A stretch of 31,790 bases of DNA from Pseudomonadales bacterium (GTDB taxonomy: Bacteria; Pseudomonadota; Gammaproteobacteria; Pseudomonadales; Azotimanducaceae). Each line of letters starts with the position of its first letter. The first letter of the stretch is position 1. The stretch lies in the NCBI GenBank assembly GCA_050118205.1, contig JASFLG010000001.1, forward strand, positions 1 through 31,790, read 5' to 3'. Shown in pieces: positions 10,321 to 27,492 of this stretch. The notes under the pieces were generated by a model. The model saw only the letters and a program-made list of their open reading frames with translations, had not been told where the DNA came from and searched no databases. The position numbers were made by a program, and so were the translations under genes.

Positions 10321-11856
10321 CTACAGGGGAATGTTGCCGTGCTTGCGCCACGGATTCTCGAGCTGCTTGTCACGCAGCATCGCGAACGACCGGCACACGC
10401 GCGTCCGGGTCTCCCGGGGCATGAACACGTCGTCGATGTAGCCGCGGCTGGCGGCGATGAACGGGTTCGCGAACCGGTTTTCGTACTCCTGGGTCTTTGC
10501 CTCGATGATCTGTGCGTTGCCGATGTCCTTGCGGAAGATGATCTCCACGGCGCCCTTGGCACCCATCACCGCGATTTCCGCGCTCGGCCAGGCAAAGTTC
10601 GCGTCGCCACGAAGGTGCTTGGACGCCATGACGTCGTAGGCGCCGCCGTATGCCTTGCGCGTGATCAGGGTGACCTTCGGCACCGTGCACTCGGCGTAGG
10701 CATAGAGAAGCTTCGCCCCGTTCTTGATGATGCCGCCGTACTCCTGGGACGTTCCGGGCATGAAGCCGGGGACGTCCACCAGGGTCAGGATGGGAATGTT
10801 GAACGCGTCGCAGAAACGCACGAAGCGGGCACCCTTCTTGGAGGCGTCGATATCCAGAGGACCCCCGAGCCACATGGGCTGGTTTGCCACCACGCCGATG
10901 GTGCTGCCCTGCAGGCGGATCAGGCCGATCACGATGTTGCGGGCGTATTCCGGCTGGAGCTCGAAGAAATCGCCCTCGTCCGCGACCTTAACGATGACTT
11001 CCTTGATGTCGTAGGGTTTGGATGCGTCCGCGGGCACGAGGCTGTCCAGCGACGGCTCTTCCCGGGTGGCCGGATCGTCCGTCGGCCACCGTGGGGGCTT
11101 TTCCCGGTTGTTGGACGGCAGGAAGTCCATGAAGCGCCGCGTCTGCAGGATGGCCTCCAGGTCGTTGACCATGGCGAGGTCCGCCACCCCGGACTTCTTG
11201 GTGTGGATGCTGGCGCCGCCGAGCTCCTCCGGGGTGACGATCTCGTGGGTGACCGTCTTCACCACGTCCGGTCCGGTCACGAACATGTACGAGGAGTGCT
11301 CGACCATGAAGGTGAAATCGGTGATGGCGGGGGAGTAGACCGCCCCACCGGCGCAGGGCCCCATGATGAGGCTGATCTGCGGAATCACACCGGAGGCGAG
11401 CACGTTGCGCTGAAAGATCTCGGCGTAGCCACCGAGAGACGCCACGCCCTCCTGAATCCGAGCGCCGCCGGAATCGTTGAGTCCGATGACCGGTGCTCCG
11501 ACCTTCATCGCCTGATCCATGATCTTGCAGATCTTCTCGGCATTCGCTTCCGAGAGCGCGCCGCCGAAGACGGTGAAATCCTGGCTGAAGACGAACACCA
11601 GGCGCCCGTTGATGGTGCCGTAGCCGGTCACCACCCCGTCCGAGGGAATCTTCTGCTCTTCCATGCCGAAATCGGTGCAACGATGCTCGACGAACTTGTC
11701 CCACTCCTCGAATGAGTCTTCATCGAGCAGCAGGGTGATGCGCTCACGGGCAGTGAGCTTGCCCTTCAGATGCTGCTGTTGAATCCGATGCTCGCCACCC
11801 CCGAGCTCCGCCGCCCTGCTGGTTTCCTGCAGCCGGGCAATGATTTCCCGCTTCAT
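10321..11856 (-). CDS. pccB: Propionyl-CoA carboxylase beta (carboxyltransferase) subunit
   Basis: [56 protein letters not shown]-terminal KHGNIPL. Confidence 0.93.
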
Positions 11857-19960: not shown

Positions 19961-21694
19961 ATGCGCCCTGTAGTCGTCGTCGCCGTGATCGTCGCGCTCG
20001 TGGCCGTTCGACCGGTCTGGGCGGACGTACGCCTGGACGGAGTGAAGGGTCGGATCGCGGACAACGTGCGTGCCTATCTGCGTCTGGATGACGAGCCCTG
20101 CGATCAGGATCCGGTGCGAGTCCGCTACCGCTACGAGCAGGCTCCCCGGGACATCCGTGAAGCCCTCAAGCCCTTCGGCTACTACCAGCCCAGCATCGAA
20201 TCCACCCTGACGCTGAACGAGGACAGGGAGCAGGACTGCTGGCGCGCCGTGTTCCGTATCGATCCGGGTGAGCCGGTCCTCATCGACTCGGTGGATGTGG
20301 ACGTACGCGGTGAGGGCTCGAGCCTGCCGGTTTTTCAGCGTCTGCTGGCGGATACGGGGCTGAAGACCGGTGCGCAGCTCCGGCATTCGGACTACGAGAC
20401 GCTCAAGGATGCTCTGCTGGTCGCAGCGCGGGAGTACGGCTTCTTCGATGCCCGACTGATCCGGCACGACATTCGCGTCGATCGGGGGCGGTACTCTGCG
20501 AGCATCAACCTGGTGATGGATACCGGAGAGCGTTACCGGTTCGGCGACCTCGACGTAAGCTCGGGCGCCGACGTGCTCAACCGTGAGCTGCTGGTCCGGT
20601 ACGCGGACTTCAACGCCGGAGCACCGTTCGAGCAGCGCCGTCTGCGTAAGCTGCAGAATGACCTCGTCGCCAGCGATTACTTCAGCGTCGTGGACGTCCG
20701 CACCCGGCCGCGGGAAGATGACAAGACCGTGGACGTTCGTGTGATTCTGGAGGCGTCGCGACGTATCCGCTACGGGATCGGAATCGGTTACGGCACCGAC
20801 ACCGGCCCTGTCGTGCGCGGCGACTTCTCGGTCCGCCGCCTGAATCGCGCCGGGCACCGGCTCGGCATGGATACCGAGCTCTCCGAGGTGACGCAGAACG
20901 TCTCCGCCGACTATCGCGTTCCCGGCAAGCGACCGCAGAGCGACTGGTACTCGTTCTACGGCGGCGTGAACCGGGAGAACTCGGACGCAATCGAGAACGT
21001 CGCCGTCAAGGTCGGGGTGCGTCAGAACATCTTTCACACTGTCAACTGGAGCTCCACGCCGTTCATCGAGCTGCTCGTCGGACGCTCAAAGCAGAACGGG
21101 GCGTGGACCCAGCAGATGTCGCTGGTCCCCGGATGGGGCGTTCACTACGTGACGGCCAACGTCCCGGTACGACCCACGCACGGCCTGCGGTTCAAGGCCG
21201 AGGCGGCGACCGCCATCGAGAACGTGCTCTCCGATGCGTCCTTTCTGCGGCTGGACCTGGAAGGCAAGACGATCCTGCCACTGTCCGAGCGCGGCCGGCT
21301 GCTGCTGCGCAGCGAGGTCGGCTGGATGGCCACGAACGACTTCGAGAACGTGCCGCCTGCCTGGCGCTTCTTTGCCGGGGGCGATCGCAGCGTGCGCGGG
21401 TACGACTACCAGTCGCTGGGCCCCCAGGACGACGCGGGGAAGTCCCTTGGTGGGCGTTTGCTGCTGACCGCAAGCGTCGAAAGCGACTGGCGGTTCCTGG
21501 CGCGCTGGTCGGCGGCAGTGTTCGTCGACGCGGGCAACGTTGGTGACGAGCATCTGCTCGACAATCTGCCCTGGAGCATCGGTGCCGGGGTGCGCTGGTA
21601 CTCGCCGGTTGGTCCGATCCGTCTGGATCTGGCCTTTCCGCAGGAGGGGGGCAACAGCTTCCGGATACACATCTCCATGGGCCCGGATCTCTGA
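19961..21694 (+). CDS. tamA: Translocation and assembly module outer-membrane subunit TamA
   Basis: Signal peptide, POTRA-like region (ALKPFGYY), GIGYGTDTG, RFFAGGDRSVRGY, GVRWYSPVGPIRLDLA, C-terminal IHISMGPDL; TGATG overlap with tamB. Confidence 0.92.
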   Translation: MRPVVVVAVIVALVAVRPVWADVRLDGVKGRIADNVRAYLRLDDEPCDQDPVRVRYRYEQAPRDIREALKPFGYYQPSIESTLTLNEDREQDCWRAVFRIDPGEPVLIDSVDVDVRGEGSSLPVFQRLLADTGLKTGAQLRHSDYETLKDALLVAAREYGFFDARLIRHDIRVDRGRYSASINLVMDTGERYRFGDLDVSSGADVLNRELLVRYADFNAGAPFEQRRLRKLQNDLVASDYFSVVDVRTRPREDDKTVDVRVILEASRRIRYGIGIGYGTDTGPVVRGDFSVRRLNRAGHRLGMDTELSEVTQNVSADYRVPGKRPQSDWYSFYGGVNRENSDAIENVAVKVGVRQNIFHTVNWSSTPFIELLVGRSKQNGAWTQQMSLVPGWGVHYVTANVPVRPTHGLRFKAEAATAIENVLSDASFLRLDLEGKTILPLSERGRLLLRSEVGWMATNDFENVPPAWRFFAGGDRSVRGYDYQSLGPQDDAGKSLGGRLLLTASVESDWRFLARWSAAVFVDAGNVGDEHLLDNLPWSIGAGVRWYSPVGPIRLDLAFPQEGGNSFRIHISMGPDL

Positions 21695-24600
21695 TGCTGC
21701 GCATGCTCGTGCTGGTTCTGCTCGTGGTGCTGATGCTGGCGGTCGCCGTCGTCGTTGGCGTGCTCGCGAGTCCCGCCGGAAGCCGGCTCATCGCCGACCG
21801 GGTCGAGCAGATGCTGGCCCCCCGACTCACGATCACCGGGCTTTCGGGCTCTGCGCTGGGCGAGCTTTGCGCCGAGCGGGTACGCTACGAGCAGCCCGGG
21901 GTACGCGTCCTGGTCGAGGGCGTCTGCGTCGAGGCGAACGTGTGGTCGTCATTCGATTTTCTTGCCGTGAGCCTGCAGTCCGTGGATGCGGAGCGTGTTC
22001 AGATCGAGACCGAGGCGGCCGAACCGCCCGACGGCGGACCGACGGCGCTCACGTTACCGCTGGGCATCACGGCCGAGAACGTCCGGATCGGCGCGCTGTC
22101 CGTCAACGCTACCCGGCTGGTGGACATCGATGCCAACCTGTCACTCAGGAACACGGACCTGGCCATAGCGACCAGCTTCACGTTCGCCGACCGTCGGGTC
22201 ACGATGCGCACACGCGGCCCCTGGGATGCGCTGCATGCCGAGGTGGTTGCGCTGGGCGTCAACGCGGAGGTCTCCACCAACCTGCAGGACGACGCGCTGC
22301 CGTTCCGGATCTCCGCGCGTGCCCGGACATTCGACCTGACACCGTTCGTGGATCGTGCGGTGCGCCTGGATCAGGTCAGCGTCCAGGGTCAGGGTGATCT
22401 CTCCGGGTACCGGTTCGACGCGGGAGCCGGCGTTACCGATCCGAGCATCCAGGGCCAGCTGCGCGTATCGGGTCGGGGCGACTGGGCCGGCATGACGTTC
22501 GCTTCGATTCAGATCCGCGATGCGACGCTGACGGACATGCCGCTCACGGTCGAGGAGGCGACCGGCCGTGGGCGGCTTACCTGGTCGGACGGGTTCGGGA
22601 TGCACTTCGAGTCCATGAGCTCCCGGGGCGTGCTGGATCGGCGGCCGCTCAGGGCCGAGCTCGCGACACTGGAGCTCGACACGTCGGCCGCGACGCTCGC
22701 CGGTGGGGCGCTGCACGTCCTGCAGTCGGGCCGGAGTGGTGTGCTGCGTGTCGACGGCCAGGTGGGCTACGACGGGCACCTGGCGCTCGATCTGAGCGGC
22801 AGCGGATTGCCGCTCGGGCTCGCAGACGAGCGGTTCTCCGGCAGCGCAATGGCCACGCTGCAGGTGCGGGGCGCGTTGTCGGATCCGGCGCTCAAGGGCT
22901 CATTTACGTTGACGGATGCCGGGTACCAGACGCAGATGCTCGGGAGCCTGAGCGGCCGGCTCGACGGTCGGCTCGATCGTGGCACGGTCGACTTCGATGC
23001 CGACACGCCGCAGGGAGAGGCTCAAGGGCAGGCGTCCTACCGGATGACCGACGAGGGTGTCGACATCGGCGTCGCCACCCTGGACCTCCGGCCGACATCG
23101 GTGGCGGCCGGTGCACGACTGGCCGGAGCTGCCAGCGTCTCCGTGAGCCGTTCCGGACGGGTAATGGTACCGCGCGCGTGCCTCGAGCTGTATGCCACGG
23201 ATGCGGACCTGGACACGGCCCGGGCCTGCTTTGCCGTCGATTATCCGGACGGTGGGCTCACCGTGGATGTGGAGCCCTGGACGCTGCCCGCAACGGTGCT
23301 TCCCGCGGGCGCGATCACTCTGCGCGGTGTCGCCAGCGCACGGGTACGGCTCGACTCGTTTGCGCCGCTTTCCGGTAGTGCGCATCTGGATCTTTCCGGA
23401 CTCGTAGCGGAGCACGAGGGTGTGGATCCGCTCAACCTCGGCGCGGTAACCGCCAGCGCCACGCTGGGTGACAAGGCAGTCGACGTGACGCTGGCTACGC
23501 CCGCGGGGGTGTCACAGGCGCTCACGCTGTCGGGCAGAGCGCATGGCAGCCTCGAGAGTCCCGTCGGAGCGTCACCGGTGTCGGGCGAGCTGGCACTGCA
23601 GATCGACGGTCTCTGGGCGGCGCGTACCCTGCTGCCCATGGAGGTGACCTTCGAGCTCGATCGAATGCGCGGCACGATGGAGGTGCGAGCAGACCTGAAG
23701 GGCACCATCGGTGAGCCGCTGGTCAACGGCACCCTGGTACTGAGGGACGCCGGCTGGCTGGTGCAGGCGCTGAACACCGAGTTCAGCGACGTGCGTGCGG
23801 AAGCGCGACTGACGGACACGGAAACGATCACGTTCAGCAGTCAGGGAAGCATCGGCAAAGGCTCGCTGGCCGTCTCCGGACGGCTGGTGGGACTGTCGAC
23901 ACCGACGCCGGAGCTGTTCTCGGATTTCAAGCTGGACCGGGCCCAGGTGGTGGATCTGCCGGACTACTCGGCGCGTCTCTCCGGCACGGTTCATCTGGAG
24001 ATGGGCACGGATACGCTGCGCCTGATGGGCGACCTCGAGATGCCGACGGCAGACATCCGCATCGGCGATCTGCCCGAGACCGCGGTCGGTGTCTCGTCCG
24101 ACGAGGTGATCGTCGATGCCGAGACCTCGGCCAACACCCAGCAGATCCGCACGACGAATCTCAACCTGACCCTGGGCAACCGCGTCTGGCTGGATGCGTT
24201 CGGCCTCAGGTCGCGTCTGGTGGGGAACCTGCGCCTCGAGGAGTCGCCCGGGAAGCTGCAGTCCGTGACCGGCACCATTTCCCTCAAGGAAGGCACGTTC
24301 GAGGCCTATGGTCAGGAGCTGACGGTGGAGCGCGGGCAGCTGACGTTCACGGGACCGCTGGACAACCCGACGGTGGACGTGCAGGCCACCCGGGTGGTGA
24401 CGTACGAGGAACGGGACTACCGGATCAGCCTGCTGCTCTCCGGTTCGGCCAAGGACCTGGTGACGAGCCTCCGATCGCAACCCGCGCTGCCGGAGGACGA
24501 TGCCCTCGCGCTACTGCTTACCGGCAAGACGCTGTCTGACATCTCGGCCCAGGAGCGATCCAATGTCAATGGCGCGGCACTCTCGATGGGCCTGCTCAAC

Positions 24601-24855
24601 GCCATGGGAGTGACTCAGAATCTCGCCGACCGGTTGAATCTCGAGGAGATCATCGTGGATCAGGACACGGAAGGTAACATGGAGGTGGGCGCCGCCGTCC
24701 GCGTGAACCGGGATTTCTATCTGCGCTACACCTATGGCGTTTTCTCCCGGCTGGGTGGCGTGCTGCTGCGTTACCGGCTCAACACGCGTCTCAGCGTGCA
24801 GGCCCAGACGGGTGACGCCACCTCCATCGAGATTCGCTACGGGGTGGACGACTGA
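21694..24855 (+). CDS. tamB: Translocation and assembly module inner-membrane subunit TamB (DUF490)
   Basis: N-terminal TM anchor, long beta-rich body, C-terminal FEAYGQELTVERGQLTFTGPLDNPTVDVQA..ALALLLTG..YLRYTYG..LRYRL. Confidence 0.88.
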   Translation: MLRMLVLVLLVVLMLAVAVVVGVLASPAGSRLIADRVEQMLAPRLTITGLSGSALGELCAERVRYEQPGVRVLVEGVCVEANVWSSFDFLAVSLQSVDAERVQIETEAAEPPDGGPTALTLPLGITAENVRIGALSVNATRLVDIDANLSLRNTDLAIATSFTFADRRVTMRTRGPWDALHAEVVALGVNAEVSTNLQDDALPFRISARARTFDLTPFVDRAVRLDQVSVQGQGDLSGYRFDAGAGVTDPSIQGQLRVSGRGDWAGMTFASIQIRDATLTDMPLTVEEATGRGRLTWSDGFGMHFESMSSRGVLDRRPLRAELATLELDTSAATLAGGALHVLQSGRSGVLRVDGQVGYDGHLALDLSGSGLPLGLADERFSGSAMATLQVRGALSDPALKGSFTLTDAGYQTQMLGSLSGRLDGRLDRGTVDFDADTPQGEAQGQASYRMTDEGVDIGVATLDLRPTSVAAGARLAGAASVSVSRSGRVMVPRACLELYATDADLDTARACFAVDYPDGGLTVDVEPWTLPATVLPAGAITLRGVASARVRLDSFAPLSGSAHLDLSGLVAEHEGVDPLNLGAVTASATLGDKAVDVTLATPAGVSQALTLSGRAHGSLESPVGASPVSGELALQIDGLWAARTLLPMEVTFELDRMRGTMEVRADLKGTIGEPLVNGTLVLRDAGWLVQALNTEFSDVRAEARLTDTETITFSSQGSIGKGSLAVSGRLVGLSTPTPELFSDFKLDRAQVVDLPDYSARLSGTVHLEMGTDTLRLMGDLEMPTADIRIGDLPETAVGVSSDEVIVDAETSANTQQIRTTNLNLTLGNRVWLDAFGLRSRLVGNLRLEESPGKLQSVTGTISLKEGTFEAYGQELTVERGQLTFTGPLDNPTVDVQATRVVTYEERDYRISLLLSGSAKDLVTSLRSQPALPEDDALALLLTGKTLSDISAQERSNVNGAALSMGLLNAMGVTQNLADRLNLEEIIVDQDTEGNMEVGAAVRVNRDFYLRYTYGVFSRLGGVLLRYRLNTRLSVQAQTGDATSIEIRYGVDD

Positions 24856-24857
24856 CG

Positions 24858-24974
24858 TCAGGTGACGAGCGTCACGATGGCGATCAGCACGATGGACACG
24901 GCGATCAGCGCGCCGACGTTGATGCCGATCTTCTTCAGAACCTGGGCGTCGCCGTGATCGATGTAAGTGGTCAT
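24858..24974 (-). CDS. Small single-TM membrane protein, 38 aa (missed by the ORF track)
   Basis: AAGGGAG-5nt-ATG; MTTYIDHGDAQVLKKIGINVGALIAVSIVLIAIVTLVT; GC3-rich codons; stop 2 nt from the convergent tamB stop; FNR box upstream. Confidence 0.75.
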   Translation of the reverse strand: MTTYIDHGDAQVLKKIGINVGALIAVSIVLIAIVTLVT

Positions 24975-25039
24975 GGATGCTCCCTTGGCGAATGATGGTT
25001 GTACGGTGATGACGCTATCGCGACGCGTGCCTGCCGGAT

Positions 25040-25053
25040 TTGATCCGGATCAA
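25040..25053. promoter_or_regulatory. FNR/Anr/Dnr-type binding site TTGAT-CCGG-ATCAA
   Basis: Exact match to TTGAT-N4-ATCAA inside a perfect 18-bp palindrome (25038-25055). A minus-strand -10-like TAGCGT at 25017-25012 places the box centre at -41.5. Confidence 0.82.
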
Positions 25054-25151
25054 ATTCCGGTCGTCGTCCCATATCCCGGCCGGATCGCGCTGGCCACCCC
25101 CGCGGATTGACGCTAGTCTTCCGGCGACAGACGGGGAGGGGGTCATCGGGA

Positions 25152-25637
25152 ATGCGCACGGGATATTCGCTGATCGTTCGACTCGGGACGGCGACGCTCC
25201 TCGCCGTGACGACGCTCGGAGGGTGCGCCGAGAAGACCGCGGAACCAACGGTGAGCTACCAGGCGGTCCTCGACACGAAGCAGCTGATGGACTGGATCAT
25301 CGATCCGAGCTCGGACGTCGTCTGGGGCGCTGCGGGGACCATCATGACGCTGGACGGCGAGCAGGATCTGGCGCCCACCACCCAGGCGGGCTGGGATGCC
25401 GTGCGTAACGCTGCCGCGACCCTGGCCGAGACGGGCAACCTGCTCAAGATGCCGGGAATCTCCCGCGGCGCCGACTGGAACGAGATCGCCGGCGGTCTGA
25501 CCCGAACGGGCGAGCTCCTGATCGGCGCCGCCGAGCGACAGGACGACGAACAGGTATTCGACTACGGGGGGCAGCTCTACAACGTCTGCGTTGCCTGTCA
25601 CCAGATCTATCTGCTGCCGGGGCTCGAGTCTGAGTAA
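25152..25637 (+). CDS. Lipoprotein class II (four-helix, c'/c556-like) c-type cytochrome
   Basis: Lipobox LGGC; all-helical; single C-terminal CVACH heme motif; N-terminal KQLM. Confidence 0.72.
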   Translation: MRTGYSLIVRLGTATLLAVTTLGGCAEKTAEPTVSYQAVLDTKQLMDWIIDPSSDVVWGAAGTIMTLDGEQDLAPTTQAGWDAVRNAAATLAETGNLLKMPGISRGADWNEIAGGLTRTGELLIGAAERQDDEQVFDYGGQLYNVCVACHQIYLLPGLESE

Positions 25638-26340
25638 GGGTTCGCGGCCTTCGCGTGCGGCGCTGGCGCGGGCAGCGGTTGTCGTAGCGGGGCTGCTCCT
25701 GTCCGGGGGCGCCGTCGCGCACAACGTATCGGCCGACGATGCGCGCTTCGTCGAGCAGCTCAGCGGCCCGGCGATGGTGCCCTTCCTCTACCTCGGTGCC
25801 AAGCACATGTTCACAGGCTACGACCACGTGCTTTTTCTCGTCGGCGTGGTGTTCTTTCTGTACCGGCCGGGACAGGTCGTTCTCTACGTGTCGCTGTTCA
25901 CCCTGGGGCACAGCATCACGCTGCTCGTCGGCGTGCTGGCCGGATGGCGTGTGGACCCGTACCTGGTTGACGCCATCATCGGGCTGTCGGTGGTGTACAA
26001 GGCGTTCGAGAACATGGGCGGTCTCGACGGGCTCGGGCGCTTCCGCCCGGACGCCCGGGTCGCCGTATTCGTCTTCGGGCTCTTCCACGGTCTCGGGCTC
26101 GCGACGCGCCTGACGGATCTCACGCTCACGGATGAGGGTCTTCTGGCCAACCTGCTGAGCTTCAATGCAGGTGTCGAGCTCGGTCAGATCGCCGCGCTGA
26201 GCATCGTGCTCCTGCTCCTGGTCGGCTGGCGGGTACGTCCCGGATTCGCCGGGCAGGCGTTCGCCGCCAACGCTCTGCTCATGACCTGCGGCTTCGTGCT
26301 GGCCGGTAATCAGCTCGCCGGGCTCGTGCTGGTGCGATGA
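25630..26340 (+). CDS. HupE/UreJ-family membrane protein (putative Ni/Co-type metal transporter); start uncertain (CTG 25630 or TTG 25591)
   Basis: Signal peptide followed by AH; LGAKHMFTGYDHVLFL, FTLGHSITL, FGLFHGLG, FNAGVELGQ. Confidence 0.82.
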   Translation: MSKGSRPSRAALARAAVVVAGLLLSGGAVAHNVSADDARFVEQLSGPAMVPFLYLGAKHMFTGYDHVLFLVGVVFFLYRPGQVVLYVSLFTLGHSITLLVGVLAGWRVDPYLVDAIIGLSVVYKAFENMGGLDGLGRFRPDARVAVFVFGLFHGLGLATRLTDLTLTDEGLLANLLSFNAGVELGQIAALSIVLLLLVGWRVRPGFAGQAFAANALLMTCGFVLAGNQLAGLVLVR

Positions 26341-26876
26341 CGGGACGGACACGCAGATTGCTGGGGGCCGTGCTCGGCTCGCTGGCGGCCGCCGGGATCA
26401 TCCTGGTGACGGTGGTGCTGCCGGCGGAGTACGACCTCGATCCCCTGGGCACCGGGGAGTGGCTGGGCCTGACGGGCCTTGCCCGCGCCACACCATCCGT
26501 TGTCACACCGCAGACGGCACCCTACCGGGACGACCGGGTGCGCTTCGAGCTCGAGCCTTTCGAGTCCGTGGAGTACAAGTACCGGTTCGAAAAGGGCGAT
26601 GCCATGGTGTTCTCCTGGCTTTCCAGCGGTGAGGTCATCTTCGACCTGCATGCCGAGCCCGAGGGCGCCGCGGACGGTTTTGCGGAGAGCTTCGAGCGGG
26701 GGCGCGATGTCGGGCGGCACGGGAGCTACATCGCGCCCTTCGCCGGGATTCACGGCTGGTTCTGGGAAAATCGAGGCATGACGCCGGTCACCGTGGAGCT
26801 CACAGCGTCCGGCTTTTTTACCTGCGCGATCGAGTTCCGGGACGGATATCGCGACCGTCGGGTGCCAGGCTCGTGA
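26337..26876 (+). CDS. 'Transmembrane anchor'-type protein: one TM plus a small beta-sandwich; typical partner of HupE/UreJ
   Basis: ATGA overlap; N-terminal TM, VLPAEYDLDPLG..LGLT, EYKY, FDLHAEP, APFAGIHGWFWEN. Confidence 0.72.
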   Translation: MTGRTRRLLGAVLGSLAAAGIILVTVVLPAEYDLDPLGTGEWLGLTGLARATPSVVTPQTAPYRDDRVRFELEPFESVEYKYRFEKGDAMVFSWLSSGEVIFDLHAEPEGAADGFAESFERGRDVGRHGSYIAPFAGIHGWFWENRGMTPVTVELTASGFFTCAIEFRDGYRDRRVPGS

Positions 26877-26905
26877 GCTGCCATGGCATGCCCGAACCGG
26901 TGGGT

Positions 26906-26911
26906 TACAAT
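26906..26911 (+). promoter_or_regulatory. Possible sigma70 -10 element (TACAAT) ahead of the DUF6644-like pair
   Basis: 5/6 match 17 nt upstream of the ATG at 26929; no convincing -35. Confidence 0.35.
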
Positions 26912-26928
26912 GCGCGCCTCGATGGGGG

Positions 26929-27492
26929 ATGGGTTTGTCGCTGCTGAGTTTTGCACAGTGGTTGGATTCGCAGGCGTGGAGCACCGCGCTGCACGAGTCG
27001 CTCTACATGTATCCGTGGATAGAGAGTGCCCACGTGCTGACCCTGATGCTGTTCGTGGGCACTCTCATCGCCGTCGACCTGCGCCTGCTCGGCGTCGCCT
27101 TCCGCACCGTTCCCGTGTCTGAGATGACCAGCCGGATGCTGCCCTGGACAGTGGCCGGGTTTGTGATCATGGTGATCACCGGGGCGCTGCTTTTCTATGC
27201 CATCCCCGTGCGCACGTACCAGAGCCTGTGGTTCCGCACCAAGATGCTGCTGCTGGCCGTGGCCGGGATCAACGCCTTGGTGATGCACCGGAAGATCATG
27301 GCCAATCGGAGCGACTGGGACACCGCACCGACGCCACCGCGCAGCGCGCGCATCTCGGCTGCCGTGTCCCTCACCGCCTGGGCCGGGGTGATCATTACCG
27401 GACGCTTCATCGCCTACAACTGGTTCGACTGTGACCGTCCGCAGCCGGATTGGGTGGTGTTTCTCGCGGGTTGCGTCGTCGAGGACGTTTAG
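26929..27492 (+). CDS. DUF6644-like 4-TM membrane protein, copy A
   Basis: WIESAHVL, DLRLLG, TGALLF, WFRTKM, GRFIAY; Cys-pair C-terminal tail. Confidence 0.75.
   Translation: MGLSLLSFAQWLDSQAWSTALHESLYMYPWIESAHVLTLMLFVGTLIAVDLRLLGVAFRTVPVSEMTSRMLPWTVAGFVIMVITGALLFYAIPVRTYQSLWFRTKMLLLAVAGINALVMHRKIMANRSDWDTAPTPPRSARISAAVSLTAWAGVIITGRFIAYNWFDCDRPQPDWVVFLAGCVVEDV

Follow-up and report, generated by a model that had tools for sequence, protein, structure and literature searches.

A 38-codon gene in the 31,790-nt stretch analyzed here (the window) probably encodes a single-pass inner-membrane protein of 38 residues, with a class II FNR promoter as its sole evident control. Taken overall, with the gene, the FNR control, and the client step proposed below, this is the best explanation of the data, and we hold it with reasonable rather than high confidence. 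The family to which the peptide belongs is unnamed and new; its kind, the FNR-driven single-helix microprotein, is already known. CydX and CcoM are low-oxygen-induced small membrane proteins and true subunits of terminal oxidases, and each is said to have come to light by chance in a structure. A further family is defined here by comparative genomics alone; with ~37 residues and an almost invariant class II FNR promoter, it is a well-defined and testable candidate for researchers on small proteins and on respiration.

The original prediction, made from the letters of the window, had described a perfect TTGAT-N4-ATCAA palindrome, a TAGCGT −10 hexamer, a leader of ~30 nt, an AAGGGAG ribosome-binding site, and a 38-residue open reading frame (ORF) with a short polar head, a KK pair, and a C-terminal hydrophobic helix. 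All were found where they had been placed and in the layout described (Table 1), the leader coming to 31 nt when counted from the −10 position. With the hexamer taken as positions −12 to −7, the 29.5-nt spacing puts the box at −41.5 and the predicted start near position 25005. The class II geometry that had been claimed is therefore borne out as spacing, at this locus and across the family, with a start predicted from the hexamer; −41.5 is the canonical class II activating position for FNR. In box, spacing, and lack of a −35 element, the predicted promoter matches the class II FNR promoters of Escherichia coli and the Anr promoters of Pseudomonas, with no difference in architecture. A promoter and terminator scan of positions 24500 to 25300 predicted neither a complete sigma-70 promoter nor an intrinsic terminator; the former result is as expected, since an activator-dependent promoter lacks a −35 element. 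The box is unique in the window even with 1 mismatch allowed, and the 4.33-Mb assembly (G+C content, 65.8%) holds 4 perfect boxes versus 0.34 predicted from base composition. Comparative data could hardly lend more support to the class II FNR reading of these letters.

Table 1. Positions of the features described in the text (window coordinates, except for the last four rows, which refer to loci in other genomes)
Feature	Position	Strand	Details
tamB	21694-24855	plus	Convergent with the microprotein gene; stop ends 2 nt from the microprotein stop (24858-24860)
RNA contig cover	24700-24983		X17, 24704-24983; X18, 24709-24953; X19, 24700-24898
Microprotein gene, MTTYIDHGDAQVLKKIGINV...	24974-24858	minus	38 codons; ATG at 24974; TGA stop ending at 24858
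Shine-Dalgarno sequence, AAGGGAG	24986-24980	minus	5 nt before the ATG; purine-rich sites likewise placed in orthologues
Predicted transcription start	25005	minus	From the −10 hexamer; 31-nt leader
−10 hexamer, TAGCGT	25017-25012	minus	First base exactly 29.5 nt from the box center; no −35 element
FNR/Anr box, TTGATCCGGATCAA	25040-25053	palindrome	Center 25046.5; core of the 18-bp palindrome ATTTGATCCGGATCAAAT
Sigma-70-like promoter of the divergent gene	25091-25119	plus	−35 TGGCCA, 25091-25096; 17-nt spacer; −10 TAGTCT, 25114-25119
Divergent lipoprotein gene	25152-25637	plus	C-terminal CVACH; heads a HupE/UreJ-DUF6644 cluster
ccm-spacer loci			L047, L048, L052-L055, L063, L064
L048, microprotein gene	1474-1602	plus	Example of a ccm-spacer locus
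L048, ccmB	1674-2399	minus
L048, ccmC	544-1431	minus

The ORF list gives no in-frame start upstream of 24974. From its N terminus, the peptide comprises 6 extended residues, an acidic juxtamembrane turn, KK, and ~23 hydrophobic residues that run to the C terminus; AlphaFold2, run on the 35-member family alignment, returned one continuous helix (residues 7 to 37; pLDDT, 93). By the positive-inside rule, we infer an N-in, C-out topology with the acidic/KK head in the cytoplasm. Public protein collections contain the identical peptide, unnamed or labeled hypothetical, so gene callers do detect this ORF.

A homologue search for the ORF and its box had been proposed as a check on the original prediction, and the two turned out to be conserved together across the genus and the order. 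Ten of the 13 genomes of the organism's own genus carry the ORF at 53 to 71% identity (six-frame search); nine of these copies are complete, each with 37 to 38 codons, and the tenth (L008) is cut by a contig end. Across the family, ORF length ranges from 34 to 44 codons. Summed over genus pairs, differences at codon positions 1, 2, and 3 numbered 350, 328, and 664, respectively, with a median dN/dS of ~0.33. This retention of length and this purifying selection argue for a real protein-coding gene. Sampling 400 genomes across the order added 20 that carry the family, from 13 of 158 genera, for a total of 21 of 401 (about one in twenty). A profile built from nine orthologues matched 39 clusters among 1.84 billion representative proteins, nearly all of 35 to 39 amino acids (aa), and no member of the family bears a database name beyond "hypothetical protein."

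In an alignment of 35 diverse members (A2), D9, N19, and L23 never vary and G17, V26, and L30 hardly do; the conserved signature of the family is [ED]-D-x-x-T-[LM]-[KR]-[KR]-I-G-[IV]-N-V...L..V...L. Amino acid identity is 33 to 71% across members from genomes of very different G+C contents. The members found in ccm clusters (described below) lack the invariant Asn and have weak scores (E values of 1e-8 to 2e-3 per genome). Searches with the window's peptide and with each of the 35 members gave no family in Pfam or NCBIfam, and a feature search of the ESM Atlas gave only subthreshold hypothetical clusters and unrelated small-protein families, all scoring below 0.9.

Upstream of the gene, TTGAY-N4-ATCAA lies 62 to 75 nt (once, 128 nt) before the ATG in nine of the ten genus loci, and the remaining locus has a box with one mismatch. 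Farther afield, the order-wide search placed TTGA-N6-TCAA 65 to 131 nt upstream in 16 of 18 full-length distant loci; FNR boxes were also present at four fnr-linked metagenome loci (L042 to L045) and at two of three family matches from outside the order (L109/L110). The strongest result tying the box to the microprotein gene is the fixed spacing between the box and the putative −10 element: in 19 of the 27 box-bearing loci, the first base of a TAnnnT hexamer is exactly 29.5 nt from the box center, and each other offset occurs at most twice among them. The same unit of gene plus promoter appears to recur, unnamed, in part of the Pseudomonadales as a member of the FNR/Anr regulon. Two members (L049 and L051, from genus g34; MVTEDTRTMKQIGLSIGG...) have no FNR box within 250 nt and are flanked by genes for a LamB/YcsF protein and a hexapeptide transferase; these two members either break the box rule or form a diverged subfamily.

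The genome encodes a regulator suited to this box. A gene on contig C56 (~10349 to 11020) specifies a protein with the N-terminal C-X2-C-X5-C motif, the central Cys, and an E--SR helix (ECVSR), and its product is the only match in the assembly to FNR proteins taken from related loci; by these features, it is a bona fide FNR. Allowing at most one mismatch, 56 boxes were found in the genome, only three of which have TAnnnT at +29.5 (the microprotein locus and sites on contigs C43 and C44). Since full-consensus geometry occurs at only two or three promoters here, the microprotein gene may be a principal FNR target of this organism. The site on contig C43 (1189 to 1202; L023) has a box identical to TTGATCCGGATCAA with TACATT at +29.5 and faces a gene for a flavin-dependent monooxygenase (FMO/Pyr_redox_3), and a second perfect box, on contig C130, falls inside or before another flavin-dependent monooxygenase gene. 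One would not expect an FNR promoter to drive an oxygen-consuming enzyme.

Within the genus, the microprotein gene is convergent with tamB and divergent from a gene for a lipoprotein with a CxxCH motif. The tight convergence with tamB recurs in six genus genomes, with stops 2 to 60 nt apart in the genus. Upstream of the lipoprotein gene, most species of the genus share the block GAGCCTAGCGTCATTCC-N8-GGCCAGC (on the plus strand, GCTGGCC-N8-GGAATGACGCTAGNCT), which we read as a sigma-70-like −35/−10 pair and which may instead be the site of another regulator. The divergent lipoprotein had no match in the PDB.

The region is present in public wetland metagenomes. RNA contigs covering the ORF, one per run, came from three wetland metatranscriptomes, which are deposited under three studies that share a year and a habitat (Table 1). 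In this low-oxygen habitat, the part of the locus that assembles most readily is an RNA of at least ~280 nt across the ORF; the contigs give neither strand nor ends, and their source could be the 3′ end of tamB, into the antisense of which the cover reaches by ~155 nt. A fourth run (X20) yielded a contig at positions 24528 to 24744, inside tamB, and no other RNA contig fell in the ~3.5 kb from 23500 to 27000, the uncovered parts of which are not evidence of silence. The RNA carried a single variant, at position 24870, which is synonymous (ACG to ACA, Thr35). The shared stopping point of the contigs in three runs (24700 to 24709) was considered as a transcript 3′ end and rejected: no hairpin lies there, and an assembly break caused by strain variants looks alike.

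Other readings of the box and of the transcript were weighed against FNR control of a membrane microprotein. The half-sites of TTGAT-N4-ATCAA are common to Anr, Dnr, NNR, and FixK, and at least five Crp-family genes are present in an assembly that is 87% complete, so the box might be read by an FNR-family regulator that senses a signal other than low oxygen (NO, for the Dnr/NNR type, or a FixK-type input). We regard this as improbable, given that the remaining Crp-family genes have CRP-like or different recognition helices, that the C56 product alone is FNR-like, with all four cluster cysteines and the E--SR helix, and that a cysteine-bearing fnr or anr gene adjoins the microprotein gene in other lineages. 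More doubtful still is the suggestion that the box really controls the divergent CxxCH-lipoprotein/HupE/DUF6644 operon, or acts in both directions, and that the small ORF is incidental. The box does lie in the shared 177-nt intergenic region, ~105 nt from the divergent ATG at 25152, and a palindrome could in principle act both ways. The divergent gene, however, has its own conserved −35/−10 pair, at a distance from the FNR box that varies among species from 55 to 105 nt in the intergenic alignment; measured from that promoter, the box would be at about −79.5, a nonactivating position, and the box accompanies the microprotein gene into neighborhoods that lack the lipoprotein/HupE/DUF6644 operon. 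The box thus appears to be in fixed register with the microprotein promoter only and not with the divergent operon.

A regulatory-RNA function of the transcript, whether main or additional and perhaps antisense to tamB, ccmB, or fnr, is unlikely as an explanation of the locus, and it has precedents. Both known Anr-driven small-ORF transcripts of Pseudomonas aeruginosa (PhrS and SicX/PA1414) act as RNA (PMC10247376; PMC8395346). SicX (PA1414), like the microprotein gene, has a short ORF with an Anr box in front of it; the SicX ORF is an annotated one, and SicX is strongly induced by low oxygen; its start-codon and frameshift mutants remain functional, and it is confined to one species (PMC10247376), whereas the microprotein is conserved as a peptide across many families of bacteria. 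At the present locus, the two convergent stops are 2 nt apart with no predicted terminator, so the tamB and microprotein transcripts must overlap, and the RNA cover extends into the antisense of tamB; elsewhere, the gene converges as tightly on ccmB and on fnr (in L043, at 12 nt). Against this stand the conservation of the peptide rather than of the nucleotides (dN/dS of 0.33 at the amino acid identities given above), a downstream partner that varies by lineage, an Rfam search of 16 family loci that gave nothing relevant, and a predicted RNA fold no better than that of shuffled sequences (z score, +0.4). Given how often the gene converges tightly on a neighbor, an antisense-RNA role in addition to the peptide is a real possibility. 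Least probable of all is a type I toxin-like or membrane-depolarizing peptide that slows growth under anoxia. A small, hydrophobic, single-helix product and overlap with a possible convergent transcript would suit such a toxin, as would faint matches to the YonT model (NF047537; E values, 0.26 to 0.45), but the YonT score of 11 bits against a cutoff of 45 is noise, no antitoxin RNA or promoter was apparent in the promoter scan, the gene is single copy and syntenic within the genus, and a conserved polar head and a helix face of small residues are more readily explained by specific packing than by pore formation.

A membrane microprotein under FNR control invites comparison with CcoM, the 36-aa fourth subunit of the cbb3-1 oxidase of Pseudomonas stutzeri (PDB 5DJQ, chain N; PMC4742706). 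The two are alike in length (~36 to 38 aa), in having one transmembrane helix, in coming from the same bacterial order, and in being encoded by a stand-alone gene away from the oxidase operon, behind TTGAT-N4-(A/G)TCAA (PMC4742706). They differ in layout: in CcoM, the helix comes first and a basic tail last, whereas in the microprotein, the acidic/KK head comes first and the helix last. The microprotein has no similarity to CcoM, including at M17, F20, and F24. The original prediction had held the peptide to be unlike CcoM or CydX, and the searches agree, with no PDB match to the family profile and a profile-profile probability of 1% for CcoM. The ORFs of PhrS (RF01673 loci; MFVDDVVLAG..., 37 aa) match 5djq_N with an E value of 1e-21 and are the same peptide as CcoM. 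Identity of the microprotein family with the PhrS peptide was considered and rejected: the PhrS ORFs extracted are CcoM, which has a profile-profile probability of 1% against the family. In the order, 22 of 151 sampled genomes gave an RF01673 match, with an FNR box upstream in all eight loci inspected (L068 to L075), and PhrS/CcoM is far more widespread than "almost exclusively Pseudomonas" (PMC4742706).

CydX and CydH (YnhF) are likewise single-helix microproteins of a low-oxygen terminal oxidase, cytochrome bd. The difference is that CydX is encoded in the cyd operon and the microprotein gene stands alone. The PDB search gave no similarity to CydX or CydH, and the assembly (87% complete) yielded no match to cytochrome bd subunit I.

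Neither an RF01673 match nor the CcoM peptide was found in this genome. Among the 401 genomes of the order, 87 have the CcoM peptide, and none has it together with the microprotein family (0 of 20 family genomes). Counted by bacterial families with strong microprotein matches, the overlap is zero, for which our own estimate of P is ~0.06; a mutual exclusion of CcoM and the microprotein is suggestive only. A bolder reading, which we think unlikely, is that the Pseudomonadales independently evolved a second low-oxygen microprotein, the present one, which replaces CcoM where CcoM is absent, as a cbb3 subunit of inverted topology or a hypoxia-specific heme delivery factor for Ccm, with an mRNA that serves also as an antisense brake on tamB, ccmB, or fnr.

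Outside the genus, the gene has other neighbors. At eight loci from four bacterial families (Table 1), it lies antisense in the ~240-nt ccmB-ccmC spacer of the ccmABCDE cluster. The FNR box of these loci falls at about the start of ccmC, and FNR binding or antisense transcription in the spacer could affect ccm expression. In at least three lineages, the gene is convergent with a cysteine-bearing fnr or anr gene, beside ctaA, ccoI-ccoS, hemN, and apt, and at one locus, it is divergent from usp. Neighborhoods differ between lineages and do not indicate a single partner; as gene content, they point to respiration or heme handling at low oxygen.

Of the 21 family-positive genomes checked, 20 have the cbb3 oxidase gene ccoN (the one without it is 78% complete), as do 318 of the 401 genomes of the order (79%); with cbb3 oxidase so common and related genomes not independent, this co-occurrence is weak evidence. 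In the present genome, ccoNOQ lies on contig C272 (L076, 133 to 2195, minus strand), a separate contig from the microprotein gene, and no FNR box with up to 2 mismatches was found within 400 nt upstream of ccoN, which suggests that, in this organism, FNR does not control the cbb3 oxidase. The gene upstream of ccoN-ccoO-ccoQ looks, by eye, like one for a response-regulator receiver domain. When the microprotein (alignment A2) and the CcoN of this genome (alignment A5) were modeled as a complex, the score was 0.00 in a run made without controls; this result counts neither way.

Our best estimate, from the neighborhoods and the co-occurrence with ccoN, is that the microprotein would serve a cytochrome-related membrane complex under low oxygen, as an accessory or a regulatory helix, and its most likely client is a part of the cytochrome and heme-handling machinery. 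No particular client is more likely than not: in a rough ordering, some partner other than the two named next comes first, the cbb3 oxidase second, and Ccm cytochrome c maturation third. As oxygen falls, the [4Fe-4S] form of the single FNR of this genome (C56) would bind the box at −41.5 and recruit RNA polymerase to a promoter without a −35 element, with transcription starting near position 25005. The short mRNA would be translated from AAGGGAG, and the peptide would insert with its acidic/KK head in the cytoplasm and its C terminus outside. The invariant Asp and Asn, together with the small-residue face of the helix, might then pack against a larger membrane protein, and this packing would stabilize or tune that protein under low oxygen.

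For annotators, the family supplies a rule: the microprotein gene should be called at its right start, not inside a translated FNR box. The public gene calls of P0003, P0004, P0007, P0012, and P0015 extend upstream through the promoter, in what is a systematic start-site error for this family, and the N termini of the over-long database entries (LIAIK, LIWIN, and FDLDQ) are the FNR box translated.
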